Of a stretch of 64,000 nt of DNA, positions 2,190 to 63,847 are shown piece after piece. The position numbers were made by a program, and so were the translations under genes. Numbering within the stretch: position 1 is the first letter of the stretch; each line of letters begins with the position of its first letter. Source of the DNA: Candidatus Nomurabacteria bacterium (GTDB lineage Bacteria; Patescibacteriota; Saccharimonadia; JAGOAT01); contig JACKGM010000002.1 in the NCBI GenBank assembly GCA_020639315.1, forward strand, positions 222,321 through 286,320. Reading direction: 5' to 3'. The notes beneath the pieces were generated by a model. That model saw nothing but the letters and a program-made list of their open reading frames with translations, was not told the origin of the DNA and searched no databases.

Positions 2190-4763
2190 TTACCTCCCAG
2201 AATATCTCTTGGGTTCAGGAATTTTGGCTGAATTTGCCCCGATCGATTGGCTAAAGGCATTTTGTCTGTTAATTGTTTTTTGAGCTTGGTTTTGCTTGGA
2301 GTTACCATGCTTCCTTTCGAGCATCCCTTGTAAGGAATTATTCTCCGACCTCACAGTGTTGGCTAGATTAGCCCAATCGAGAATTTTATTCTCTACTTCT
2401 TCTCTTCTACTCGAATACCTTTGTCTTGACAAACTTATTATTTTATTGCTTAAATCAAAACTTGGAGCTGGTACATCCAAAGTCTTCGCACTAAAAGGGA
2501 GGGTTGTCTGACCATCAATACTCATTGCTATATAAATATTTCTGATATCTAGATTGACTAGGTCCTCTTCACTAAAAACTGGTTTAAAGTACTTACTCAG
2601 ATACTCAGCATCATCGGCCCCGACCCTAAAAGTGATCATTGAGCCAACATTGCCAAATACTGCATCTCTGACTTCGTCTCGCATCTGAGAGACATACTGA
2701 TTGGCAACAGTCAGGTTTAGGGCATATTTTCTAGCTTCTGAGAGAATAACTGCAAACGACTCAGTAGCAAAATTTTGGAACTCGTCGACATAGAGATAAA
2801 ATGGTCGCCGATTGGCTGGTAAGGTATCCGCCCGACTCATTGCTGCTAATTGGATCTTAGTAATCATTAAAGCACCCAGAATACTAGCGTTATCTTCACC
2901 AATCAAACCCCTAGAAAGATCTACGATCAAGATCTTGCCTTGATCCATAATCTGACGAATATCAAAGCTGGACTTGGGCTGACCCAGCACATTTCTAATC
3001 AGTGGGTTGGCAGTAAAGGCTCCTACCTTATTTAAGATCGAAGAAGTAGCCTCAGAAGCAAATCTCTGATCCCAGCTCGCAAATTCATTGACCCAAAAGG
3101 CTTTGACTACTGGATCAGTCACATTATCAACCACTTTTTTTCGATACTTACTGTCAGTCAACATCCTGACTATTCCTAGCATCGTTGCGTCAGGATATTC
3201 AAGCAAAGCAAGCAGACAATATCGCAAAATATGCTCGAGTCTTGGACCCCAAGAATCAGCAAATATCTTATGTAATACCCCAATAATCTCTGAGGCTATA
3301 TGGGGTCTGAAGTTCGGATTTGTCACTTCCATAGGATTAAATGCAACTGGATTATCTCGATCGGATGGATTGAAATATACTACATCAGCAAGCCTTTGCT
3401 CAGGAATATAGCTCATCACATCTCTAGCCAGTTCCCCATGAGGGTCAATGATCGCAAAACCTTGATTGTGATAGATGTCAGAGATTGCCAGAAGGGTCAA
3501 AAGATAGGACTTACCAGACCCACTCTTCCCTATCACATAGAGGTGCCTTGCCCGATCAGACCTCTTAATCCCAAATTTTGCATTGTGTTGCCTAAACATT
3601 GTCTGACCGATCAGGCTAATATCAGCTTGATCAGCTTGGCTAACTATCGGCAAGGTTTGAGGCGGTTCAGCTTGCTTACTACCAGTCCAGGCAAGATTTG
3701 GTGTCTCGACCGAAGTATGTGGGAAATGAAAGAGACTAGCTAATTCTTCGGTATTTAGAATAAAACTATACCTAGTATCAAAGACTCGATTTTTAAAATC
3801 TTGATAATACTGCTCTCCTCTTTTGGTAGAACCAGCTCTAAACCCATTGAGCTGGGTGTTAAACTGTTTGAAACTTCCATATACTGCTTGAAGTTTAGCT
3901 TGAGCAAGGGATTGATCTCCGATATAAATTACCCTGATCATCACCTGAAAACCTAGCTTGGTTGCCTTCTCTTCTATCCCAGCGACCTGGCTAGTAGCCA
4001 GACTACTCAGCTTATCTGACTTATGTGACTCTTCAATCGAAACTGGACCAACCAATAAGGCATGAAACAAATCCCTAACCCAAGCCATTAGACCTGCTGG
4101 CAGATTTGCAAAACTACTGATCAAGGGTTTACCTGATCTGACCTTGGCAATCTCTTTTTGACTATCCTTGTGCCAATCATCAGATATTGGTCGTACAATC
4201 ATCTGGATTGCTAGATTTTGATCAGATTCTAAGCTAGATAAGACAGCCGTAATTCCCGATAATGGATCAACCTCAAAATTACTAAAAGTCTTAATCGGCA
4301 AATATTGACTATTTTTTAGCACTATCTCACTACCGATCGCCTTACCCTTCATCCCTTCTAAGTAGTCTGTCTGATGTTTAATTATCTGGACATTTGGATA
4401 CTGCGCATAGATTTGACCCTCGACATAGTTTTCCAATTTTTCAGGACAACGCAGATAAAAATAAATATTTTTAGACCCTACCAACTCGAAACTAAGTGAC
4501 TCCTGAAGTGCCATCCCTGATCTTAGCTCAGTCTTGCTTCTGAGTATCCCATGTAGACTGGCAAACATCTGCTCAGCAGCCAACTCTGATTTGTCGTTCT
4601 CCCTTGGTATAATAATTTGCAATAAAACAGACTTCTGATCCTCGACCAGTCTAATCTGACGGTTCTGGACTATGATCCGCCAAACCAAAAACCCAGCCAA
4701 AGGCAACCAGCCATAATAACGGATTAAAACGGTTAAAAAAAAGTTGAATATACCCTCAATCAT
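2190..4763 (-). CDS. VirD4/TraG/HerA-FtsK-superfamily membrane-anchored ATPase (type IV coupling-protein-like)
   Basis: N-terminal TM helices, Walker A GKSGSGKSYLL, Walker B FYLYVDEFQNF. Size and layout are typical of coupling ATPases. Confidence 0.65.
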   Translation of the reverse strand: MIEGIFNFFLTVLIRYYGWLPLAGFLVWRIIVQNRQIRLVEDQKSVLLQIIIPRENDKSELAAEQMFASLHGILRSKTELRSGMALQESLSFELVGSKNIYFYLRCPEKLENYVEGQIYAQYPNVQIIKHQTDYLEGMKGKAIGSEIVLKNSQYLPIKTFSNFEVDPLSGITAVLSSLESDQNLAIQMIVRPISDDWHKDSQKEIAKVRSGKPLISSFANLPAGLMAWVRDLFHALLVGPVSIEESHKSDKLSSLATSQVAGIEEKATKLGFQVMIRVIYIGDQSLAQAKLQAVYGSFKQFNTQLNGFRAGSTKRGEQYYQDFKNRVFDTRYSFILNTEELASLFHFPHTSVETPNLAWTGSKQAEPPQTLPIVSQADQADISLIGQTMFRQHNAKFGIKRSDRARHLYVIGKSGSGKSYLLTLLAISDIYHNQGFAIIDPHGELARDVMSYIPEQRLADVVYFNPSDRDNPVAFNPMEVTNPNFRPHIASEIIGVLHKIFADSWGPRLEHILRYCLLALLEYPDATMLGIVRMLTDSKYRKKVVDNVTDPVVKAFWVNEFASWDQRFASEATSSILNKVGAFTANPLIRNVLGQPKSSFDIRQIMDQGKILIVDLSRGLIGEDNASILGALMITKIQLAAMSRADTLPANRRPFYLYVDEFQNFATESFAVILSEARKYALNLTVANQYVSQMRDEVRDAVFGNVGSMITFRVGADDAEYLSKYFKPVFSEEDLVNLDIRNIYIAMSIDGQTTLPFSAKTLDVPAPSFDLSNKIISLSRQRYSSRREEVENKILDWANLANTVRSENNSLQGMLERKHGNSKQNQAQKTINRQNAFSQSIGANSAKIPEPKRYSGR

Positions 4764-8718: not shown

Positions 8719-8770
8719 TACTTGACATCATTATAAACTATCATCAGCCCAAAATCAAAACTTCCCTTTT

Positions 8771-8830
8771 CAAGGGCACCCCTTGCAATTTTATATCTGT
8801 TGACATAGTGATTTTCAAGGGCACCCCTTG
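8771..8830. repeat. Palindrome doublet, family 1 (arm CAAGGGCACCCCTTG x2, 30-nt spacer)
   Basis: Arms at 8771-8785 and 8816-8830, centres 45 bp apart. The same element occurs at 25983-26042 and 50501-50560. Confidence 0.9.
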
Positions 8831-8858
8831 AAAATCACTTATTTAAATACCAAAATAC

Positions 8859-9628: not shown

Positions 9629-11098
9629 CTATTCTTCTAAGGCTTGATTTAATCTAGCAAGCGATTCCTGTCTGCCCAATAATACCATAATATCATAGAT
9701 CCCCATCGCACCCAATTGGCTAGTAAGACTTGCCCTGAGACTCATCATCACAAACTTAGTACTTAACCCACTGGATTTAATAAACCCCTTCACCAAGTTG
9801 ATCAATTCTCCCTTCTCCCAGTCTTGATTGGATTCTAAGACTGCCAAAAGTCTTTCCACTACGACCTCAAAGTCAGCTTTATCTAGGTCAAACCGATCCA
9901 AAACAGTTTGATCAAACTTTGGCCTCCGATATAAGAAATAAATCTTATCAATATACTGCTTGGGGTTGGTAATTTTATCTTTTTCGACAGTCAAGATCCT
10001 TTCTAGATAGGCTATATCGTCGGGGTTACTCAAAAAATTCCGACTAGCTTCCCATTCTGGATCAAAATAATCCTTGATCAGTGGCTTAAATACTTCGACT
10101 AGCTCTTGCATTCCTAACATCCTTAGATGCTGAGTGTTAAACCAATCCAACCTTTCTTGATTATATATCGCTGGGCTAACCTGCAAAGACTTGGGATTAA
10201 AAGCTGCGACCAATTGGCTCAATGAAAATACCTCCTGAGTACTTCCAGGGTTCCAGCCTAGTAACGCTAGGTAATTAACAATTGCATTAGGTAGGTAACC
10301 TTGATGCTTAAGAAGCATCAAATCACTAGCTCCTGAGCGTTTGGAAAGTTTTTTCTTGTCCTCACCCAATACTATAGGTAGATGTAAAAAATTTGGCACA
10401 GCGAAGCCCAATGATTGATAAAGCAACTGATGCTTGGGGGTAGAAGCAATAAACTCCTCTGCCCGAATCACATCACTTACTTGCATCAAATGGTCATCGA
10501 TCACATTTGCAAAGTTGTAGGTCGGGTAACCATCTGACTTGATCAAGATAAAATCTTCTATAGTACTAAGATTAACTGTTTGTTCTCCTCTTATGCTATC
10601 TTTCCAGGTGACCGTATCACCAACTACCTTTGACATCCTAAACCTGATTGGGACATTTGCCCTATTGTCTCCAAGTTGTCTATCAAAATCTTCTCCCCTG
10701 AATACAAAGCTTCTCTTGTCTTGTTTAGCTTTGAGCTTAGCCTCTTCAATTACAGCCTGATTTAGATCGGAATAATATGCTAGACCTTGATCTACAAGCT
10801 CATGGGCAAACCTTTGATAAAGTTTTAATCTTTCAGACTGACGATACGGACCGAATTCTCCCCCGATTTCTGGGCCTTCGTCAGGGGCAATCCCCAACCA
10901 ATCAAAAACTTGACGCATTTGAGCCTCAGCACCACTGACAAATCGTTCTTGATCAGTGTCCTCAAGCCTCCAGACAAACTGTCCAGATTTGGATTTGGCA
11001 AATAAATAGCAAAACAAAGCAGTCCTGATAGAACCCAAATGTAAATACCCGGTCGGGCTAGGCGCAAATCTAGTACGAACCTTACTATTATCACTCAT
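9629..11098 (-). CDS. gltX: Glutamyl-tRNA synthetase
   Basis: HIGH-type motif PSPTGYLHLGSIRTA and KMSKS-type KLSKR. Confidence 0.95.
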   Translation of the reverse strand: MSDNSKVRTRFAPSPTGYLHLGSIRTALFCYLFAKSKSGQFVWRLEDTDQERFVSGAEAQMRQVFDWLGIAPDEGPEIGGEFGPYRQSERLKLYQRFAHELVDQGLAYYSDLNQAVIEEAKLKAKQDKRSFVFRGEDFDRQLGDNRANVPIRFRMSKVVGDTVTWKDSIRGEQTVNLSTIEDFILIKSDGYPTYNFANVIDDHLMQVSDVIRAEEFIASTPKHQLLYQSLGFAVPNFLHLPIVLGEDKKKLSKRSGASDLMLLKHQGYLPNAIVNYLALLGWNPGSTQEVFSLSQLVAAFNPKSLQVSPAIYNQERLDWFNTQHLRMLGMQELVEVFKPLIKDYFDPEWEASRNFLSNPDDIAYLERILTVEKDKITNPKQYIDKIYFLYRRPKFDQTVLDRFDLDKADFEVVVERLLAVLESNQDWEKGELINLVKGFIKSSGLSTKFVMMSLRASLTSQLGAMGIYDIMVLLGRQESLARLNQALEE

Positions 11099-12759: not shown

Positions 12760-12822
12760 TATATATCAAACTATCAAGATATCCAAAATAAATTTGACTA
12801 ACATATTACACCACATTTCCTG

Positions 12823-12884
12823 TCGCGAACTGTTCGCGATTTTTACTAACTTACCAGATTACGAATGTCGCGAACAGTTCGCGA
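12823..12884. repeat. Palindrome doublet, family 2 (arm TCGCGAAC(T/A)GTTCGCGA x2, 28-nt spacer)
   Basis: Arms at 12823-12839 and 12868-12884, centres 45 bp apart. Confidence 0.9.
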
Positions 12885-12936
12885 TATTTTGATTTTGCGA
12901 AGCTTGTCAATACCTGTAAAACAAACCTACTCAAAA

Positions 12937-25944: not shown

Positions 25945-25982
25945 TATACCATGCCAACCACTCTCCTCAAAAACCCCAGTTT

Positions 25983-26042
25983 CAAGGGCACCCCTTGACC
26001 TTTTTGATCTGTTGACTATTGCCTTTTCAAGGGCACCCCTTG
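25983..26042. repeat. Palindrome doublet, family 1
   Basis: Arms at 25983-25997 and 26028-26042, centres 45 bp apart. Confidence 0.9.
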
Positions 26043-26109
26043 AAAAAACGAGTTTAAAAAAATTAGACTAATAACCCTACTGGGATAAGCCTATTTACTA
26101 AACCTTAAT

Positions 26110-29122: not shown

Positions 29123-29457
29123 GGGAGGTAGCTGGCTATAAGCCGAATTCTGTCCAACACATTTAGTGTCTGGATAATCATTTATCTTAGCGTCATACCC
29201 TTAGGCCAATTACTTGACCTAGACGGCGAGCAGCCTGGGTCCATTAGACTTGCAGCAGACAGGGTTTACCCCTAGATTATGTCGCCATAATCTACTGTGA
29301 GCTCTTACCTCACTCTTTTCACCCTTACCCGCAATGGGCGGTATTGTCTCTGTGGCACTTTCCCTAGGATTGCTCCTGGTCACAGTTAGTGACTGTCTTT
29401 GCTCTGAGCTGTTCGGACTTTCCTCCGCCAAAGCGGCGATTACCCACCAACTACCAT
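29123..29457 (-). ncRNA. rnpB: RNase P RNA, bacterial type A
   Basis: The minus strand contains GGAGGAAAGUCCGAAC (CR-I), GUGCCACAGAGACAAUACCGCC, GGUAAGGGUGAAAAGAGUGAGGUAAGAGCUCAC, GGUAAACCC and ACAGAAUUCGGCUUAU (CR-V). P1 pairs GGUAGUUGG with CCAGCUACC. Confidence 0.93.
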
Positions 29458-29463
29458 CCTAAA

Positions 29464-30117
29464 TTATAACTCATCGGTTTCGATTTGCTCAAGCAGTCGA
29501 AAGTCCAGCCACTCCTTGCCATATCCTCCCAAATAATAATGTAGTATTGAGTACAAATAATATCTTGGTTCTTTGCCCAGTCTCAATGGATATAATATTA
29601 GCTCTTTTATCACATTTTTTGACCTAGCATTTGTTTCTAATAGCAATTTATCTATGGTAAGTTCTTTTGATACACTAGGCATTGTATACGCAATACAATT
29701 TCTAAATTTTACAACATATTCATCAATGCAGATATCTTTACAGTTCTCAATCATTATCATAATTTTATTCGGTAATATACAAAATCCTAGTATTTTACAT
29801 CTTACTAAATCCTGGTTTTTAATCTTCATATCAGCTATATAATCTTCAAAGATTCCTGTTGCCATTCTGATAGCTTTGATTGCTTGCCAGTAATGGCTTG
29901 GTAACTTGAACAACAACTTACCCTTGGGCTGATCTTTGCATTTTACTTCTAGCAACCAAGAACTTAAAGCCAGTCTTGGCTGATCAATCTGATTAACTGC
30001 CTGGTTCTCTTGCTGAACCATTGACTGGTCAACTACCTGCCTCTTGATCCCTGCCCCTCCCCTTGCTTTTGCCCAATATTTCGTACAATACTTGTATACA
30101 TTTGCAATAGGGTCCAC
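29464..30117 (-). CDS. Decayed RAYT/IS200-like (Y1 HUH) homolog lacking the HUH histidines
   Basis: ILGFCILPNKIMIMI aligns to the family motif (a)yCLMPNHvHLL but with H->K and H->M. The C-terminal ELILYPLRLGKEPRYYLYS parallels YIHLNPVRAGLV..P.DY.WSS. No RYKS-type Tyr motif was seen. Confidence 0.45.
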   Translation of the reverse strand: MDPIANVYKYCTKYWAKARGGAGIKRQVVDQSMVQQENQAVNQIDQPRLALSSWLLEVKCKDQPKGKLLFKLPSHYWQAIKAIRMATGIFEDYIADMKIKNQDLVRCKILGFCILPNKIMIMIENCKDICIDEYVVKFRNCIAYTMPSVSKELTIDKLLLETNARSKNVIKELILYPLRLGKEPRYYLYSILHYYLGGYGKEWLDFRLLEQIETDEL

Positions 30118-30353
30118 TTTTGGCCTCCTTTATTGTTATCTAGAGTTATAATGCATTGGTTCAAGCTGATTTGATCTCTGTATAAAAATTACCAAACCAA
30201 TACATCATAAGCCCAGTTTAATAGTGGCTTGATGATACTACGAGGGCTGTAAGCTAACCCACAATGACTAGCTAATCATCCTGATTGTCCCAGTAAAATT
30301 GATATTTTGCAAGCATGAGCAATTTAAAACTTAACATTACATCATATTTTTTG

Positions 30354-30415
30354 TCGCGAACTGTTCGCGACTTTTGGTGCCTTCCCAGATTAGAAATGTC
30401 GCGAACTGTTCGCGT
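30354..30415. repeat. Palindrome doublet, family 2
   Basis: Arms at 30354-30370 and 30399-30415 (last base T), centres 45 bp apart. Confidence 0.9.
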
Positions 30416-30461
30416 AATTTAGATTTTTACCATCATGTCAAGCCCCTAGACCCAACACCCT

Positions 30462-36120: not shown

Positions 36121-36571
36121 TACATCCTCCGAATCCTCCTTGAGAAGGTTACGGGATCCAGTATCTATAGCATTGTCATCTTGCAAATACCAGAGGGTTT
36201 ACGGGGGATCCAGTATTCCAGCATTTGCATTGTCATCCTCCGAATTATCCTTAAGAGAATTACGGGGGATCCAGTATCTCGCATTGTCCTGACTCCTAAT
36301 ACAAATACTGGATCTCCGGTATTTCCCCAAGGGGAAATCCGAAGATGACAAGAGGGGATGGATCTCCCATAAACCCCTGCCGGATTTTGGAAGATGACGC
36401 GAAGAGGGGGCGGAAATTTGGGTTGATGACAGAGGGAGCATTGTCATCCTCCGAAACCCACCCCTCTCCTGTCATCCTCCGAAGTTCGGAGAACTTACGG
36501 GGGATCCAGTATTCCCGCATTTGCATTGTCATTCTCCGAATTCTCATGGAGAATTACGGGGGATCCAGTAT
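36121..36571. repeat. Hairpin-unit cluster 1 (class A units +, class B/C units -, plus half units)
   Basis: Units at 36121-36164, 36175-36216, 36231-36277, 36470-36512 and 36527-36571 (+), and at 36305-36350 and 36358-36398 (-). Half modules at 36399-36437 and 36442-36469. Confidence 0.9.
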
Positions 36572-38676: not shown

Positions 38677-38839
38677 TAACCCTGTTGCCATATAAACTTG
38701 CGAGGTCAAAGCTGATGATTTTTATTCCAGAATACCAAAACACGACAAAGCATAACAGGAGTTACGCTGCGAAGTGTTTTGCTAGTCTGGGGCAAAAATG
38801 GCAGTTTTGAAGCCGTGAGGTTATATGGCAACAGGGTTA
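38677..38839. mobile_element. ~163-bp element with perfect 19-bp terminal inverted repeats (MITE-like), copy 2 of the 125-nt element
   Basis: TAACCCTGTTGCCATATAA (38677-38695) and TTATATGGCAACAGGGTTA (38821-38839). The interior is homologous to 36597-36701. Confidence 0.65.
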
Positions 38840-38840
38840 T

Positions 38841-38993
38841 TGTCATCCTCCGAAACCCGAAGGGTTTACGGGGGATCCAGTATTCGGCATTGCGCATTGT
38901 CATCCTCCGAAGTTCGGAGAACTTACGGGGGATCCAGTATTTCAGTATTTGTCAAATCAAAAATCAAGGGAATTTACAAAAAAAAACCAGTAT
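38841..38993. repeat. Hairpin-unit cluster 2, ftsA-proximal part
   Basis: Class A units (+) at 38841-38883 and 38898-38940, with a degenerate TGTCA...CCAGTAT remnant to ~38993. It ends 2 nt before the ftsA stop codon. Confidence 0.85.
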
Positions 38994-38995
38994 CT

Positions 38996-40216
38996 CTACC
39001 TAATAAGAGACTTAAACAACCCAGAGGCCTTATCGATCAAAGATCCGATTACTGAATTGACCCCGCCCTGATGGTAATCCTCAATCTCTACCCCTCGAAG
39101 CATCACACCGATCCCAGATGACATCGATGGCTCATTTACCTGCTCAACTATCCCAACAATATTCTCTGGTCCAGATATCTTGACTGGTAGTTTCAAACAT
39201 TCGCGGGCTAACTCCTCTATCCCATAAAGCTTTGCCCCACCACCAGTAAGGATTGCCCCTCCAGCAAGCTGGGTATTCATTCTAGCTAACCTGATCTCTT
39301 CAGCGACCAGGCCAAATATTTCCTCTACCCGTGAGCTCACTACATCTATCACTAGCTGTCTTTCTATCCTCCTATCTAGTCCGTAATTGGCTAGATCTAT
39401 CTCACTAGCTGGGTTATTAACAATATCTTTATAGTCTAGCTTGAGCTTCTCGGCAATCTCAAGGTTGACCTGCAGAGCATGGACGAGGTCTCGACTGATA
39501 TTAAGTGAACCAGCTGGGATTACCCTAGTCCAAACCGGTTGACCCTCACTATATATCACCAGCCCAGTCGTCTCAGCACCAAAGTCCAGGACGATTATCC
39601 CTCGCTCTCTTTGTTGTTTATTACTCACCGCTTCAGCACTAGCTAGGATACTAGGCTGATAATCCAGTACTCGTATTTCTAACCTAGACAATACATTATC
39701 AATCTGTCTAATTGTCGGGCTCCCAGCAATTAGTACATGCATACTACTCTCTAGCTTGATACCATTCATCCCTAGTGGGTCAATTATCCCTCCCTGACCA
39801 TCGATCAAGTAAGCTTGGGGTATAATGTCTAATATTTGCTGGTTTGGATTAAGCCTCATTGCTGCCGCTGCTTTATGCAACCTATCAATATCCTCTGCCT
39901 TAATAATCCTATCGTCACTGACGATCGCCACAGTAGCCTCAGTATTAACACTAGTAATCGCTGAACCATTCACCCCAACTACCGCCTGACTAATAGTAAT
40001 CCCAGACATCCTTTCAGCCTCTTCAATTGCTGCACTTAATGCAGAAATAGTTTCTTCAGGATCAACAATCACCCCCTTACGCACTCCAGATACTGGACTA
40101 ACACCCAGACCAATCACGCTAGGCATCGAGGAAATCTCCTGGATCAACCCCACTACACAGCAAACTTTGCTACTGCCAAAATCAATCCCGACTATAATCT
40201 TTTCTTTCTGCTTCAT
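38996..40216 (-). CDS. ftsA: Cell division protein FtsA
   Basis: Actin-fold motifs IVGIDFGSSKV and VLDFGAETTG...GGGAKL. Confidence 0.93.
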   Translation of the reverse strand: MKQKEKIIVGIDFGSSKVCCVVGLIQEISSMPSVIGLGVSPVSGVRKGVIVDPEETISALSAAIEEAERMSGITISQAVVGVNGSAITSVNTEATVAIVSDDRIIKAEDIDRLHKAAAAMRLNPNQQILDIIPQAYLIDGQGGIIDPLGMNGIKLESSMHVLIAGSPTIRQIDNVLSRLEIRVLDYQPSILASAEAVSNKQQRERGIIVLDFGAETTGLVIYSEGQPVWTRVIPAGSLNISRDLVHALQVNLEIAEKLKLDYKDIVNNPASEIDLANYGLDRRIERQLVIDVVSSRVEEIFGLVAEEIRLARMNTQLAGGAILTGGGAKLYGIEELARECLKLPVKISGPENIVGIVEQVNEPSMSSGIGVMLRGVEIEDYHQGGVNSVIGSLIDKASGLFKSLIR

Positions 40217-40265
40217 TGATTATATTATAGCATACCCAAACTCTCCCCTTGCAAGCCTCCCCTAA

Positions 40266-40325
40266 CGGGGTCTGACCCCGAAACTGAACCATTTAACAGA
40301 TATAAAATAACGGGGTCTGACCCCG
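40266..40325. repeat. Palindrome doublet, family 3 (arm CGGGGTCTGACCCCG x2, 30-nt spacer)
   Basis: Arms at 40266-40280 and 40311-40325, centres 45 bp apart. The reverse-complemented spacer shares ATTTTATATCTGTT with the family-1 spacer at the same offset. Confidence 0.9.
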
Positions 40326-40366
40326 AAACTAATTTTTCTAAACAAGATTTACTGCAAGGTATAAGA

Positions 40367-41146
40367 CTAAACCTGGTAAGATCTAGTGATAAATTCACAA
40401 CCGTCTTCTGTTATTAGAATCGTATCTTCATAATGGGCTGACAGTGACTGATCAGCCGTGATATAGGTCCAGCCATCTTTTGCTAGATAATTATCCTTAG
40501 TACCAAGACTAGCAATCGGTTCAATTGCAACTACAGCTCCAGCTGGAAGCTTGACCTCTGGTAAGCTGAGGTCTAGATAGTTTGGAATAGTCGGGTTCTC
40601 ATGCACCTGATAACCCACTCCATGCCCCGTGAGATTCTTAGCCGGATACAGCTTATATTTCCTTAAAATTTTACTTATTTCCAAAGATATCTGGTGGTTG
40701 CTTATGCCTGGCTTCAGAAACTCACTCATCCTTACTAAAGCTGCCCTTGTCCCTGTCATTAGCCTTACGATATCTGAACTCAAATCTTTTTTTGTAGTAT
40801 CGACGACTATCGTAGTCGCCCCATCTACTATCATGCCATTGAAGGCGACTCCTAGATCTAGCTTGAGGATATCACCGGAGTGAACAATTTTATTACCCGG
40901 TATTCCGTGAACTAATTCTTGGTTGACTGATAAGCAAACTGCCCCTTGAAATCCTTGATACCCTAGGAAGGGACAAGTTCCACCGAGATCAGCAATCATT
41001 TCTCGTGCTACCCTATCTATCTTCTTAGTCGTGATACCTGGTTCTGTCAAATCTACTAGTTTTGTTAAAACTTCTTTATGAATCCTGCCGGCTTGTCTTA
41101 ACCACTCTACTTCTTGACTTGACTTGATGAGTCCTCTACGCGCCAT
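40367..41146 (-). CDS. map: Methionine aminopeptidase type I
   Basis: VCLSVNQELVHGIPG, DLGVAFNGMIVD, HGVGYQVHE, AIEP...YED metal ligand pattern. Start trimmed to MARRGLIKS. Confidence 0.9.
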   Translation of the reverse strand: MARRGLIKSSQEVEWLRQAGRIHKEVLTKLVDLTEPGITTKKIDRVAREMIADLGGTCPFLGYQGFQGAVCLSVNQELVHGIPGNKIVHSGDILKLDLGVAFNGMIVDGATTIVVDTTKKDLSSDIVRLMTGTRAALVRMSEFLKPGISNHQISLEISKILRKYKLYPAKNLTGHGVGYQVHENPTIPNYLDLSLPEVKLPAGAVVAIEPIASLGTKDNYLAKDGWTYITADQSLSAHYEDTILITEDGCEFITRSYQV

Positions 41147-41726
41147 CAATATGACCTTGCTCCCTAAGATAGAGAGTAATATCTTGATAAATATCTGTAA
41201 TCGAACGCTCTCCATTGATGATCAAGATATCCGCATCGACTTCAGTCTGAGCCTTATTTACAACATCCCTAGTAACCTCATGATAGAGCTTCAAGCGATA
41301 TTCTACAACTTCTCTTTTATCATCTGATCTACCGCGATTCTGATCTACTAAACGATTAATGACTTCTGAGTCACTGACCTCCAGGAGGATTATTGCCAAG
41401 TCTACTCGCGATTCCAAGTCTCCAAGCAACTTCAGAAGTAAACTAAACTGTTCTATTGTCCTGGGATAACCGTTGTAGATAATGCTCTTATTGCTGGTAT
41501 TACGGATTTTATCTTCTGCTAATTTATTTGCTAGGTCAGCTGTTTTATGGAGATTTCCTGTATCTAAGGTTTTGGCAAGCTCAGAGTCACTTTTAGCAAG
41601 CACCCGAAGCATTTTACCGGTAGATAGCTCTATCAACTCTGGGTTAGCTTCAAGAAGCAAACCAACCTGTGTATCCTTACCAGACCCAGGTGGTCCAAAG
41701 ATGATTATATGTCTATTGTTGCTCAC
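41136..41726 (-). CDS. adk: Adenylate kinase
   Basis: P-loop GPPGSGKDTQ and NGYPRT motif. Confidence 0.9.
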   Translation of the reverse strand: MSNNRHIIIFGPPGSGKDTQVGLLLEANPELIELSTGKMLRVLAKSDSELAKTLDTGNLHKTADLANKLAEDKIRNTSNKSIIYNGYPRTIEQFSLLLKLLGDLESRVDLAIILLEVSDSEVINRLVDQNRGRSDDKREVVEYRLKLYHEVTRDVVNKAQTEVDADILIINGERSITDIYQDITLYLREQGHIDGA

Positions 41727-50448: not shown

Positions 50449-50500
50449 GCTTCACCCCTCTCATTCCACGCCACTCCCCCTCACCCAAAAATCCCAATTT

Positions 50501-50560
50501 CAAGGGCACCCCTTGCGATTTTATACCTGTAAAGCACCCTCTTTTCAAGGGCACCCCTTG
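50501..50560. repeat. Palindrome doublet, family 1
   Basis: Arms at 50501-50515 and 50546-50560, centres 45 bp apart. Confidence 0.9.
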
Positions 50561-50622
50561 CAAAAAAGGTTATGGCAAAATAGGGGTGATTTTGGGCAGG
50601 AGTTCGGTTATACTAAGTAGGT

Positions 50623-54013: not shown

Positions 54014-54116
54014 TAAAATAAAACAAATTTTATACTCACCCTAACACCCTAATTATATCACTTACCTAATATTATACAACTCAACCCCCAAACCCTCTCC
54101 AAACCGATCGCGTCAA

Positions 54117-54178
54117 TCGCGAACTGTTCGCGATTTTTAGCACCTTTCCAGATTAGAGATGTCGCGAACTGTTCGCGA
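54117..54178. repeat. Palindrome doublet, family 2 (upstream flank of RAYT-like gene)
   Basis: Arms at 54117-54133 and 54162-54178, centres 45 bp apart. Confidence 0.9.
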
Positions 54179-54295
54179 AATTTATTAAATATTTATACAT
54201 AACACGATACTTATGCTTGCAAATAACCCCAAAACAGTTAAGATATGACTAACTTCGTTATCTTTATAGTCCACTACTAAAATGGTTTAAATCTC

Positions 54296-54850
54296 ATGTC
54301 CGCCAGAAACACCTACAGATACAAGGTCGATAATACATTTTTGCATATATACTCTCGTGCCAATAATAAAGTTCCAGTATTTATCAATCAGAAATACTTT
54401 GATAAATTCTTAGATATCTTACTATTTTTACTTACGACTGATGACAATTTAGCCGACTCCCTTAGGTTATTTAGTAGACCTAGAAAACCATGTCAAAACT
54501 TTTCCAAAAATATCAACCTCGTGTCTTTCTGCATAATGAACAATCACTATCACCTTATAATCTATATTAAAGATAGTGATAAGTTACCAAAATTCATGCA
54601 TTTGTTTCACAGAAAACTTACACAAATTATCAACTCTGATCAAAATAAAGTTGGTCATCTGATGCAAAGTAGGTACAAATCTAGACCAATATTATCAGAA
54701 GTAGACTTGCTAAATGTATCTGCCTATATTCAACTAAACCCAAATGAAATTCATCCACAAGATAGCAACTACTACCTCAGATACCCCTTCTCTTCGCTCA
54801 ATTCAACTCATATGATTTCTAAAGTAGTCAGTACTAATATGATTTTTTAG
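54296..54850 (+). CDS. IS200/RAYT-like Y1 HUH transposase (REP-associated tyrosine transposase-like)
   Basis: FCIMNNHYHLIIY (HUH), GHLMQSRYKS (catalytic Tyr context), AYIQLNPNE...YYLRYPFSS tail. AT-rich gene flanked by family-2 doublets on both sides. Confidence 0.7.
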   Translation: MSARNTYRYKVDNTFLHIYSRANNKVPVFINQKYFDKFLDILLFLLTTDDNLADSLRLFSRPRKPCQNFSKNINLVSFCIMNNHYHLIIYIKDSDKLPKFMHLFHRKLTQIINSDQNKVGHLMQSRYKSRPILSEVDLLNVSAYIQLNPNEIHPQDSNYYLRYPFSSLNSTHMISKVVSTNMIF

Positions 54851-54992
54851 GTACACCAGTATTTCAAAGCAACAATATCTTGAATATCTTAATGCCAAAT
54901 CCAAGGATTTTGCAGAATATCAAATTATCAAAAAATCCCTATAGTAAATGATGGAAATTATCAAAATACAATATATTATGCAATATTTTTTG

Positions 54993-55054
54993 TCGCGAAC
55001 TGTTCGCGATTTTTAGCACCTTACCAGATTAGAGATGTCGCGAACTGTTCGCGA
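54993..55054. repeat. Palindrome doublet, family 2 (downstream flank of RAYT-like gene; overlaps 3' end of nadD)
   Basis: Arms at 54993-55009 and 55038-55054, centres 45 bp apart. The nadD stop codon (55029-55031) lies in the spacer. Confidence 0.9.
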
Positions 55055-55634
55055 AAAGTTGATTTTTGGTGATGTAGTCAAGGACTGGCTGGCTGAGTCC
55101 TTGGGGAGCTTGGCGATTGGCTAATTGTTGGCGGATTTGGGTGGCTGAAGTCAAATCATCTATCATTGCGACCTCTTGATATCTCAGACTAGGAATGGAT
55201 CGAAGTTTTGCCTGGATTTGTTTTGACTGATGATGATAACCTGCTCGCTTAATCCAGACGAAACCTACTCGATGTTCGAGTAGATAATCTAGCCCCTGCC
55301 ACTGATCGAGATTGGTAATCCCGTCACTACCCAAAACAATATCGACCTTAAGACCCTTGCCATAGATCTCAAACAAATCCTCCACTACCTGATAATCTAT
55401 TACTCTGGCTTCTGACTGAAAGTCATACTTATCGAGCACCGCTTGTCTATTGCCCAATCCCAATCTCAGCATTGCTTTACGATCGTCAAAACCAACTAAA
55501 CCTGCCAAGTTCCTCCGATTCTCGAGCAAGATTATTACCTCATCATAGTCCCTTGATGATAGATAGTCTACTACTGCGAGATGCCCCTGATGAACGGGGT
55601 TAAAACTTCCTGAGTACAAGGCTAGCTGGTTCAA
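55029..55634 (-). CDS. nadD: Nicotinate-nucleotide adenylyltransferase
   Basis: YSGSFNPVHQGHL motif. The last 8 codons (FANSSRHL*) are encoded by the repeat. Confidence 0.85.
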   Translation of the reverse strand: MNQLALYSGSFNPVHQGHLAVVDYLSSRDYDEVIILLENRRNLAGLVGFDDRKAMLRLGLGNRQAVLDKYDFQSEARVIDYQVVEDLFEIYGKGLKVDIVLGSDGITNLDQWQGLDYLLEHRVGFVWIKRAGYHHQSKQIQAKLRSIPSLRYQEVAMIDDLTSATQIRQQLANRQAPQGLSQPVLDYITKNQLFANSSRHL

Positions 55635-63270: not shown

Positions 63271-63847
63271 ATACCCAAAACCAAACCGGACAATTTGGGA
63301 CTACTAATAAAGAGTTGGAAAGTTAGTTCATTTTATGAACCTTACTTATCTATTTAAGCCAAAATATTAAAATACCGCTATGTCGCAAAATATTATTTAC
63401 TATTACCTTTACCCCCAAGTATTCTCTTCTCTTTTGCCATCCTCCGAGTAGCTAGCTCTGTTTATTGTCATCCTCCGAAACCTGTCCCTTCTTTCTACCG
63501 CCCTCCGAAGTTCGGAGAACTTACGGGGGATCCAGTATTCCCGCATTTGCATTGTCATCCTCCGAAACCCGAAGGGTTTACGTGGGATCCAGTATTTTGC
63601 ATTCCTGAGGCTCAACTCAAATACTGGATCTCCCATAATTTCCTACGGAAATTTGGAAGATGACTAGAGGAGAGTATTGTCATCCTCCGAAGTTTGGAGA
63701 ACTTACGGGGGATCCAGTATTTTGTATCTGGAGTCATCAACAAAAGACAAGTTGGTTTTAGGTTAAGATTAGTATCCATAGTATACCCAAAACAAAACCA
63801 GCATTAGTAGTCCCAAATTGTCTGGTTTTGGTTTGGACATGCTATAG
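63271..63847. mobile_element. Long member of the MITE family (~577 bp) enclosing hairpin-unit cluster 4
   Basis: Left arm CCCAAAACCAAACCGGACAATTTGGGACTACTA (63274-63306) and right arm TAGTAGTCCCAAATTGTCTGGTTTTGGTTTGG (63805-63836). The left ~75 nt align with the short MITE left half, and the element ends ...ACATGCTAT. Confidence 0.6.
63434..63720. repeat. Hairpin-unit cluster 4
   Basis: Class A units (+) at ~63499-63538, 63553-63595 and 63678-63720. Class C unit (-) at 63621-63665. Half modules at 63434 and 63466. Confidence 0.85.

Follow-up and report, generated by a model that had tools for sequence, protein, structure and literature searches.

The stretch of 64,000 nucleotides of contig JACKGM010000002.1 analyzed here (hereafter the window) carries the genes for RNase P RNA, dprA, map, def, priA, ftsA, ftsZ, RNR, and recJ, most of its genes being located on the minus strand. 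Between the genes lie pairs of short palindromes, herein called doublets, two of which bracket a gene, designated RAYT-1, for a Y1/HUH tyrosine transposase similar to the REP-associated tyrosine transposases (RAYTs; REP, repetitive extragenic palindrome). The relationship between these doublets and the Y1 transposases is the subject of this report. The exact window proteins were found in the metagenome-assembled genome (MAG) GCA_020428505.1 of Candidatus Saccharibacteria (TM7). A phage origin, considered on the basis of PHROG matches and the strand bias, was rejected: megablast gave no phage match, the 'phage' protein was identified as isoleucyl-tRNA synthetase, and the gene content is cellular.

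Each doublet consists of two copies of a 15-17-nt palindrome, referred to as the arms, plus a spacer, and three arm families, F1, F2, and F3, were distinguished. After repeat search, eight doublets were identified in the window, three of F1 (arm starts at 8771, 25983, and 50501), four of F2 (12823, 30354, 54117, and 54993), and one of F3 (40266), and the start-to-start distance between the two arms was 45 nt for all eight. Scanning of the window for a hairpin plus its repeat at offsets of 30-79 nt gave eight signals at 45 nt and a single signal at another offset, which was a coding repeat. All eight doublets are intergenic, and neither singlet arms nor mixed (hybrid) doublets were detected among these sites. 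The similarity between doublet copies is limited to ~65-80 nt, and no Rfam family matched the doublets. The coordinates of the doublets, their neighbors, and the associated genes are listed in the table.

Table. Doublets, genes, and RNA in the window; the strand given for a doublet is that defined by its core (ORF, open reading frame)
Feature	Coordinates	Strand	Description
F1a (family 1)	8767-8833	-	arms CAAGGGCACCCCTTG at 8771-8785 and 8816-8830; between dprA and a SLOG-family gene
F2a (family 2)	12821-12889	+	arms TCGCGAAC[T/A]GTTCGCGA; core CCAGATTACGAAT
F1b (family 1)	25979-26045	-	arms at 25983 and 26028; degenerate core AACAGATCAAAAA
RNase P RNA, bacterial class A	29123-29455	-	206.9 bits; overlaps a spurious 70-aa ORF of the mechanical ORF list
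F2b (family 2)	30352-30420	+	between ORF 29464-30117 and yggT
ftsA	38996-40216	-	neighbor of F3a
F3a (family 3)	40263-40330	+	arms CGGGGTCTGACCCCG at 40266-40280 and 40311-40325; 30-nt spacer at 40281-40310; between ftsA and map
F3a linker core TAACAGATATAAAA	40294-40307	+	spacer positions 14-27; invariant CAGAT at 40297-40301, 9 nt 5' of arm 2
map	40367-41215	-	neighbor of F3a
F1c (family 1)	50497-50563	-	arms at 50501 and 50546; core TTTACAGGTATAAAAT; between priA (+) and def (+)
F2c (family 2)	54115-54183	+	upstream of RAYT-1 by 113 nt, in gene sense
RAYT-1, RAYT-like Y1/HUH tyrosine transposase gene	54296-54850	+	184 aa; HUH (HYH) and catalytic-Tyr (AYIQLNP) motifs; Pfam Y1_Tnp
F2d (family 2)	54991-55059	+	downstream of the Y1 gene, in gene sense; 98% identical to F2c over 64 nt

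A first-pass annotation of this DNA had linked the three families through their spacers, and this link was substantiated. The spacer sequences given there were reproduced (TTATTTTATATCTGTTAAATGGTTCAGTTT for the reverse complement of F3, and CAATTTTATATCTGTTGACATAGTGATTTT for the F1 spacer at 8786-8815), and the exact 14-mer ATTTTATATCTGTT common to F1 and F3 is located at 8788-8801 on the plus strand and at 40295-40308 on the minus strand; at either site, it begins with the third base of the spacer. The weaker version claimed for F2, TCTAATCTGGT, was likewise observed on the F2 reverse complement. When the eight spacers were shuffled, none of 3000 shuffles gave an inter-family match of 14 nt in either orientation, the longest being 13 nt; the sharing of the 14-mer is not a chance match between AT-rich sequences.

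The comparison was then extended to a set of 16 doublets, composed of the eight window copies, three F3 copies and one F1 copy from L038 (another contig of the window's genome), one copy from the strain variant L040, and three from a related species (L001 and L035). Once oriented by the spacer, with F1 read on the minus strand and F2 and F3 on the plus strand, the 16 doublets aligned nearly without gaps. All of them have the pentamer CAG[A/G]T, which occupies spacer positions 17-21 and lies 9 nt 5' of arm 2; in the single copy with a 29-nt spacer, CAGAT is still located 9 nt from arm 2. In the comparison of F1 with F3, spacer positions 14-27 were 79% identical, as compared with 37% for the remaining positions. 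The consensus of this core is AACAGATATAAAT in F1 and F3 and CCAGATTAGAGAT in F2. Loss of the core from additional copies had been named as the sign of a chance match. The core was retained in the new F3 copies (L038 1306, 2024, and 2927; L040 1083; and the orthologous L035 4863) and in the new F1 copy (L038 10015). Together with the 45-nt period in all eight window copies, the presence of CAG[A/G]T in all 16 doublets supports the proposal that the three families are variants of a single element type, sharing their architecture and a conserved core in the center.

The main point missed in the first-pass annotation is the link to RAYT-like transposase genes: F2 and F3 each bracket a Y1 paralogue of their own. 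RAYT-1 is bracketed by F2c and F2d, while F2a and F2b are dispersed 24-42 kb away. Its best NCBIfam model was NF047646 (REP-associated tyrosine transposase), with a score of 42.7 bits against the cutoff of 80 bits. Thousands of distant relatives of RAYT-1 were detected by exhaustive profile-free search. In an alignment of 35 homologues, the motifs NH[YF]H and S-x-Y-I-x-L-N-P were invariant or nearly so, and both are present in RAYT-1; NF047646 was the best model for all 35 family members, in each case below the cutoff, and the IS200 model was matched by one of the 35. When the RAYT-1 sequence was used singly as a phmmer query against the PDB sequences, no match was obtained, and a sequence profile gave weak matches to TnpA_REP and to IS200/IS605 TnpA alike. 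The AlphaFold2 model of RAYT-1 showed a high mean confidence (pLDDT 93.8), and its PDB matches at E <= 1e-3 were all Y1 transposases. The top Foldseek match was 4ER8, the Escherichia coli TnpA_REP in complex with a REP hairpin (E 6.5e-6; TM 0.58/0.63), and the structures of IS608 and ISDra2 (E 5e-4 or weaker) and those of IS200 transposases ranked behind it.

The closest relative of RAYT-1 is a 54%-identical paralogue of the same genome, RAYT-2 (P0124; GCA_020428505.1, JAGQMQ010000007.1). An F3 doublet in gene sense, carrying ...TAACAGATATAAATCGT, lies on either side of RAYT-2, and further F3 copies are located apart from these flanks, at L038 1306 and at window position 40263. RAYT-1 and RAYT-2 are thus paralogues (54%) and not copies, each being present once per family in the contigs examined, and neither identical copies of a Y1 gene nor tnpB were found, so that the multicopy unit of IS200/IS605 is lacking. 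As the partner of F1, the Y1 proteins P0125, P0127, and P0133 were considered and rejected, since they belong to other organisms.

The reading frame of RAYT-1 ends in a run of six T residues (ATGATTTTTTAG; window 54838-54850). A continuation in the next frame, up to ~54941, matches the C-terminal 32 residues of the orthologue with 84% identity. The 184-aa product therefore results from a homopolymer frameshift in the T-run, which is present in both the NCBI and the Logan assemblies. The C-terminal tail of E. coli TnpA_REP is inhibitory. A tail-less RAYT-1 could be more active; other possibilities are that the gene is in decay or that slippage allows the frameshift to be bypassed.

Association of palindromes with the gene was also observed for a distant member of this protein family. 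On L041, an unrelated metagenome contig, a 37%-identical Y1 homologue is located between dfrA and thyA, and is flanked by single copies of AAAGGAC[A/T]GTCCTTT (2952-2966 and 3653-3667). The apex of this palindrome, GGAC.W.GTCC, is the same as that of the F2-type arms in the relatives of the window. The palindrome-gene association is thus a property of the protein family, and the doublet format is specific to the lineage of the window.

The arms of the three families had been described as unrelated in sequence and exchangeable. They do differ between families, but an invariant frame is common to all: in the hairpin-centered alignment (A1), C13, G16, and C24 are invariant and G27 is nearly so, as are the same positions in arm 2. 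In addition, the copy of a related species at the F3 site carries the arms CAAGGTCTAACCTCG and TGAGGTCTGACCTCG, of which CAAGGTCTAACCTCG is an intermediate form, agreeing with F1 at 10 and with F3 at 11 of 15 positions, as compared with 8 of 15 between F1 and F3 (hand count). In alignment A1, standard pairs occupied 98.5% of the cells and two-sided changes were found at four of the six stem positions per arm; this covariation score was reached by none of 500 shuffles, and no slid register came close to it. The arms are diverged homologues altered by compensatory substitutions. Since each arm type tracks its own paralogous Y1 gene (54296-54850 for F2 and P0124 for F3), co-divergence is indicated rather than swapping of modules.

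Pairing between arm 1 and arm 2 is also nearly complete (94% paired, vs. 98.5% within arms). By minimum-free-energy folding of the single strand, F2 and F3 gave the long arm1:arm2 hairpin with the core in its loop, and F1a gave two hairpins; the single-strand folds of the window copies showed z values of -5.4 to -6.7. The spacer is not self-complementary. As judged from the loop bases, the arms are direct in ~11 and inverted in 4 of the 16 doublets, the two arrangements being nearly equivalent for near-perfect palindromes. With the chromosome as reference, the core of F1 is indeed inverted with respect to that of F3 (14-mer on the plus strand at 8788 and on the minus strand at 40295). Arms that are almost perfectly palindromic leave the core as the only strong mark of polarity, and therefore the simplest reading of the inverted relation is the insertion of whole elements in either orientation, as for REP elements. 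A flip of the spacer only, by exchange between the two palindromic arms, is also possible; the identity between F1 and F3 arms was 16/30 in the core-matched and 14/30 in the core-opposed orientation, and the short flanks weakly favor the opposed one.

The doublets and the Y1 gene are conserved in a related species in which FtsA and MAP are 83% and 68% identical, respectively, to the window proteins. A 72%-identical orthologue of RAYT-1 occupies the syntenic position in L001/L002, and in L001 it is flanked by 45-nt doublets (the one at 9842 being placed as F2c is in the window) with the arms CGCGGAC.GTCCGCG, in which an A:T pair is replaced by G:C in a compensatory manner. The same arm variant was found in the orthologue of F2b at the yggT site (L033 8155 and L035 13391; both contigs, like L001, are from relatives), and the orthologue of F3a was located at the map-ftsA site (L035 4863). 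At both the yggT and the map-ftsA sites, the 45-nt period was maintained, the arm changes were compensatory, and the core (TTTATATCTGTT) was intact.

Differences in the presence of doublets were also observed. In the priA-def gap, F1c is present in the window (174-nt gap), and no doublet is present in the relative L001 (76-nt gap). The map-ftsA gap is 137-150 nt long where the doublet is present, as compared with 68 nt without a doublet in two distant Saccharibacteria; in 21 kb of each of these two, no doublet was found. Within the window's species, a cassette of the yafQ/relB toxin-antitoxin genes plus one F3 doublet is a strain indel, present at L038 1306-2090 and absent at L039 1223-1290. 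Two F3 doublets in direct orientation form the exact boundaries of this indel, with a match of 100% on the left and 99.6% on the right and an overlap equal to the 69-nt doublet, and the doublets appear to act there as recombination or insertion points. The sequence comparison altogether suggests that the doublets are lineage-specific and of an age that allows sister species to share them, yet still associated with structural change.

Contigs assembled from short reads end inside doublets, L030 in F1a (equivalent to 8767-8795) and L001 in the equivalent of F2d, indicating that 68-nt repeats of this kind fragment MAG assemblies. A degenerate two-arm pattern gave at least 25 matches across genome contigs, all chance matches in GC-rich genomes, with no Saccharibacteria among the matches listed; in the metagenome scan, the F1/F3 pattern with TTT flanks gave no match, and the F2 pattern gave a single chance match in an actinobacterial coding region. 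The lineage of the window is absent from the metagenome collections scanned.

Based on these observations, we conclude, with a probability of roughly 0.7, that the doublets represent repeats of the REP type, or of the types of bacterial interspersed mosaic elements (BIMEs) and of REP doublets forming hairpins (REPINs), in a Candidatus Saccharibacteria genome, and that they are maintained, and probably have been spread or rearranged, by paralogous single-copy RAYT-like Y1/HUH transposases. This reading combines the architecture and covariation of the doublets, the core in constant register, the bracketing of two Y1 genes, the synteny, and the presence/absence differences. By analogy with the systems of E. 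coli and IS200/IS605, we infer that the doublets are bound, cleaved, and mobilized by the Y1 proteins and that the core plays a role in these steps. We consider the system to be a REP-RAYT system of known kind in a new lineage and not a new kind of element, the variant features being the fixed spacing and the conserved linker. In the full-text literature searched, no relevant report of REP/RAYT systems in Saccharibacteria or Patescibacteria was found.

The closest resemblance is to the 'REPtron' of E. coli, formed by REP/BIME and TnpA_REP (Ton-Hoang 2012, PMC3333891; Messing 2012, PMC3479197). Common to both are paired intergenic hairpin palindromes with a linker and a single-copy Y1/HUH gene that is bracketed by its own repeats and inherited vertically at a fixed locus; 4ER8 is the best structural match, the unit contains a conserved sequence 5' of a hairpin, and the linker is conserved, as is the L linker of BIME-1 in E. 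coli (PMC3333891). For the core, an IHF (integration host factor) site was considered by analogy with BIME-1 and rejected, as no consistent match to WATCAANNNNTTR was recognized by eye. TnpA_REP and the IS200/IS605 enzymes recognize a hairpin in single-stranded DNA and draw specificity from nucleotides on the 5' side of its foot. The E. coli REPs require a conserved 5' tetranucleotide beside the hairpin, and TnpA_REP cuts at C^T sites, some of them inside BIME linkers (PMC3479197, PMC3333891); TnpA_REP is a monomer and its route of strand transfer is unclear (PMC3479197). In contrast to the E. coli system, in which TnpA_REP requires a stem mismatch, the window arms are near-perfect palindromes and have no such mismatch; they are, by loop bases, mostly direct instead of being arranged as REP and inverted REP; and every family keeps the same spacing of 45 nt. 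Moreover, GTAG is absent from the foot of the hairpin, and CAGRT is located 9 nt from it, not adjacent to it as GTAG is in E. coli, the flanking doublets are direct with the gene, the protein is only ~15% identical, and the host is a bacterium of the candidate phyla radiation (CPR) with a very small genome.

With the REPIN-RAYT systems of Pseudomonas (Bertels and Rainey 2011, PMC3116915, PMC3337134; Bertels 2017, PMC5581495), the window shares the doublet as the unit, there being no singlets in 64 kb, and the coexistence of several families per genome, each with its own RAYT paralogue and without hybrid doublets. The doublet can fold as one long hairpin in both systems, and both show vertical inheritance with orthologous copies. 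In contrast to the Pseudomonas REPINs, of which the spacers have many different lengths within a family and show no sequence conservation beyond that needed for the hairpin (PMC3337134), the window doublets have a fixed spacing and a spacer with an asymmetric core common to the families; at 8 per 64 kb, they are probably also far less numerous. IS200/IS605 and its miniature derivatives, the palindrome-associated transposable elements (PATEs), also have the Y1/HUH fold and hairpins of the same orientation on both sides of the gene, like the left and right ends (LE/RE), and the conserved sequence 5' of the hairpin recalls the guide/cleavage region of the left end. The window gene differs from these elements in being single-copy per family, syntenic between species, and not accompanied by tnpB. 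Each of its 'ends' is a complete doublet of the same form as the dispersed copies, and the RAYT model matches 35/35 family members as compared with 1/35 for the IS200 model.

Several points weigh against the REP-RAYT assignment. Some are among the differences just listed, that is, the distance of 9 nt between CAGRT and the hairpin, the direct arms by loop bases, unlike the inverted BIMEs and REPINs, the direct orientation of the doublets flanking each Y1 gene with respect to that gene, and the identity of only ~15% between the Y1 proteins and E. coli TnpA_REP. The Y1 proteins also stay below the NCBIfam cutoff for RAYT (42.7 vs. 80 bits), the window copy of RAYT-1 is frameshifted, and no cognate Y1 gene of F1 was found in ~100 kb of the window's genome. 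The sample of 16 doublets is small, with several copies being related by descent. With respect to mobility, orthologous doublets were found in the related species at two of the five comparable sites (F2b and F3a), so that many copies are old, and these may have become fixed or co-opted instead of staying mobile; in another count, four of five comparable sites were shared with the relative; no direct excision, new insertion, transposition, or binding was observed.

The mode of action of the REP-RAYT system proposed here is modeled on E. coli TnpA_REP and IS200/IS605 TnpA. In single-stranded DNA, each arm would form a small hairpin of its own, or the two would pair with each other in one long arm1:arm2 hairpin, and the stem sequence would select the paralogue to be bound, F2 being served by RAYT-1 (54296-54850) and F3 by the 54%-identical RAYT-2. 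If the stem decides the paralogue, the arms and the proteins may have diverged together. The linker core, at its fixed distance of 9 nt 5' of arm 2, would be the substrate region common to all paralogues for cleavage or strand transfer, most likely being read or cut by the active site, which would explain its conservation across families and species while other linker positions drift. The invariant pentamer contains CT when read on the opposite strand (A[T/C]CTG); this dinucleotide is a lead for the cut site. As a more tentative extension, which we regard as possible though not as probable, the system might form a distinct CPR branch of REP-RAYT, in which the unit is a rigid two-hairpin structure of 45 nt, the CAGRT core is the common site of cleavage or strand transfer, the stems are address labels for the paralogues, and the doublets serve as portable sites of recombination by which cargo, for instance yafQ/relB, is moved or deleted.

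Conservation of the core may be explained without assigning a function to it. The doublets would then be REP-like and the core only the least-diverged remnant of a common ancestor, or a product of gene conversion between F1 and F3. In favor of this reading, F1 and F3 look like sister families linked by the arm form of L035; beyond CAGAT, F2 shares only scattered A/T positions with them, the identical spacers of the three F3 copies in L038 point to recent common descent, and the spacers of Pseudomonas REPINs are not conserved (PMC3337134). However, divergence is uneven within the same 30-nt spacers (79% identity in the core vs. 37% in the rest), the register is fixed in 16/16 doublets, with the copy having a 29-nt spacer keeping the 9-nt distance, and the core is kept at an orthologous site in a species with 68-83% protein identity and altered arms. 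Although the sample is small, a relic core is disfavored by the contrast in identity and by the retention across species, and we regard it as unlikely. An involvement of the doublets in transcription is more improbable still, be it as a terminator or attenuator, made of an arm plus the T-rich part of the core, or as a promoter cassette TTGAAA-17-TATAAA, made of an arm end plus the core and insulated by hairpins or operators. Downstream of map, CGGGGTCAGACCCCG followed by TTATTTTATA on the gene strand was flagged as terminator-like, every doublet has one arm with at least five T residues in its tail on one strand, F1a and F1c can be read by eye as TTGAAA-17-TATAAA and F3a as the weaker CCGAAA-17-TATAAA, and REPs elsewhere have been co-opted as terminators or mRNA stabilizers (PMC3337134). 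In the window, however, only three of the eight doublets have their T tail oriented for a co-directional gene upstream, in agreement with the earlier view that the doublets are not simple terminators, and the orientation as a promoter would suit a downstream gene in only three of eight as well. No -10 box is formed by the F2 core (GATTAGAGAT), and the core of F1b is degenerate; the promoter sequence cannot be read in F2 or F1b, and a consensus promoter scan gave nothing at F3a. Moreover, a simple terminator would need neither a second arm at exactly 45 nt nor the bracketing of Y1 genes. Incidental co-option as a terminator may still have taken place at some sites, for instance after map.

Recognition of the arms as double-stranded DNA would be an alternative to the single-stranded hairpin. 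Near-perfect palindromes with centers of 1-3 nt could be operators for a dimeric regulator, each doublet being a pair of operators unrelated to the Y1 proteins; the covariation would fit symmetric duplex recognition equally well, and two of the sites are conserved upstream of the same genes in the relative. We give this reading very little credence: the three arm types would require three regulators, whereas the arm types track two bracketed Y1 paralogues in two genomes, and the copies are located in convergent, divergent, and co-directional gaps without a fixed distance to a promoter (36 vs. 23 nt between arm 2 and the -10 box of ftsA in two species). The layout of repeat, spacer, and repeat with palindromic repeats superficially resembles a mini-CRISPR array or solitary CRISPR repeat units, but this identification is practically untenable, because conservation of the 'spacers' extends across loci, families, and species. 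In addition, the units measure 15-24 nt and the spacers 21-30 nt, never more than two repeats are present, and no cas gene was found in the window.

The action of RAYTs on REPs and REPINs, and the reasons for their retention by hosts, are unresolved questions in the field, to which the spacers of Pseudomonas REPINs offer no clue in their sequence (PMC3337134). With respect to these questions, the presence of at least two RAYT paralogues in one small genome, with the same geometry and linker core and with different stems, provides a natural experiment in which partner specificity is set apart from the possible chemistry. The repeat-transposase system of the REP-RAYT type is present here in a CPR bacterium that is streamlined and host-dependent. 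Should the distinct-branch model prove true, its 'address' and 'cut site' would be separable, which would make this RAYT system unusually tractable, and it would reside in a genome of <1 Mb where selfish repeats are not expected. In practice, the 68-nt doublets break short-read assemblies and mark sites of strain-level rearrangement.

Some other features were noted around the doublets. A C-rich tract in the left flank of F1c (50473-50496, CTCCC…CCCAAAA) can pair with a G-rich tract (50582-50603, TTTTGGG…GGAG) located ~25 nt to the right of the doublet, and F1c is thereby enclosed in a longer inverted repeat (DNA fold z = -2.5). A C-rich tract is also present on the plus-strand left side of F1a, F1b, F3a, and F2c. 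A second, unrelated repeat family, consisting of tandem units of 57-61 nt, is located at 36153-36571, 38839-38941, and 63434-63596. On the minus strand, each unit is composed of the conserved ATACTGGATCCCCCGTAA, a variable short hairpin, and TTCGGAGGATGACAATG. These tandem units inflate the nrdR-ftsZ and ftsZ-ftsA gaps to ~730-770 nt, as compared with 123 and 342 nt in the related species without these repeats.

The ftsA gene is preceded by an extended -10 box, TGCTATAAT in the window (40217-40240) and TGGTATAAT in the relative (L035 4935-4962), located ~10 nt before the ATG and without an evident Shine-Dalgarno sequence, an arrangement that suggests a near-leaderless ftsA mRNA. Such extended -10 boxes after doublets were considered as a part of the element and rejected; since their distance to arm 2 varies, as noted above for ftsA, and one of them overlaps a start codon, they belong to the genes. 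An arrangement similar to that of the ftsA -10 box and ATG was observed at the start of the NUDIX gene (25944).

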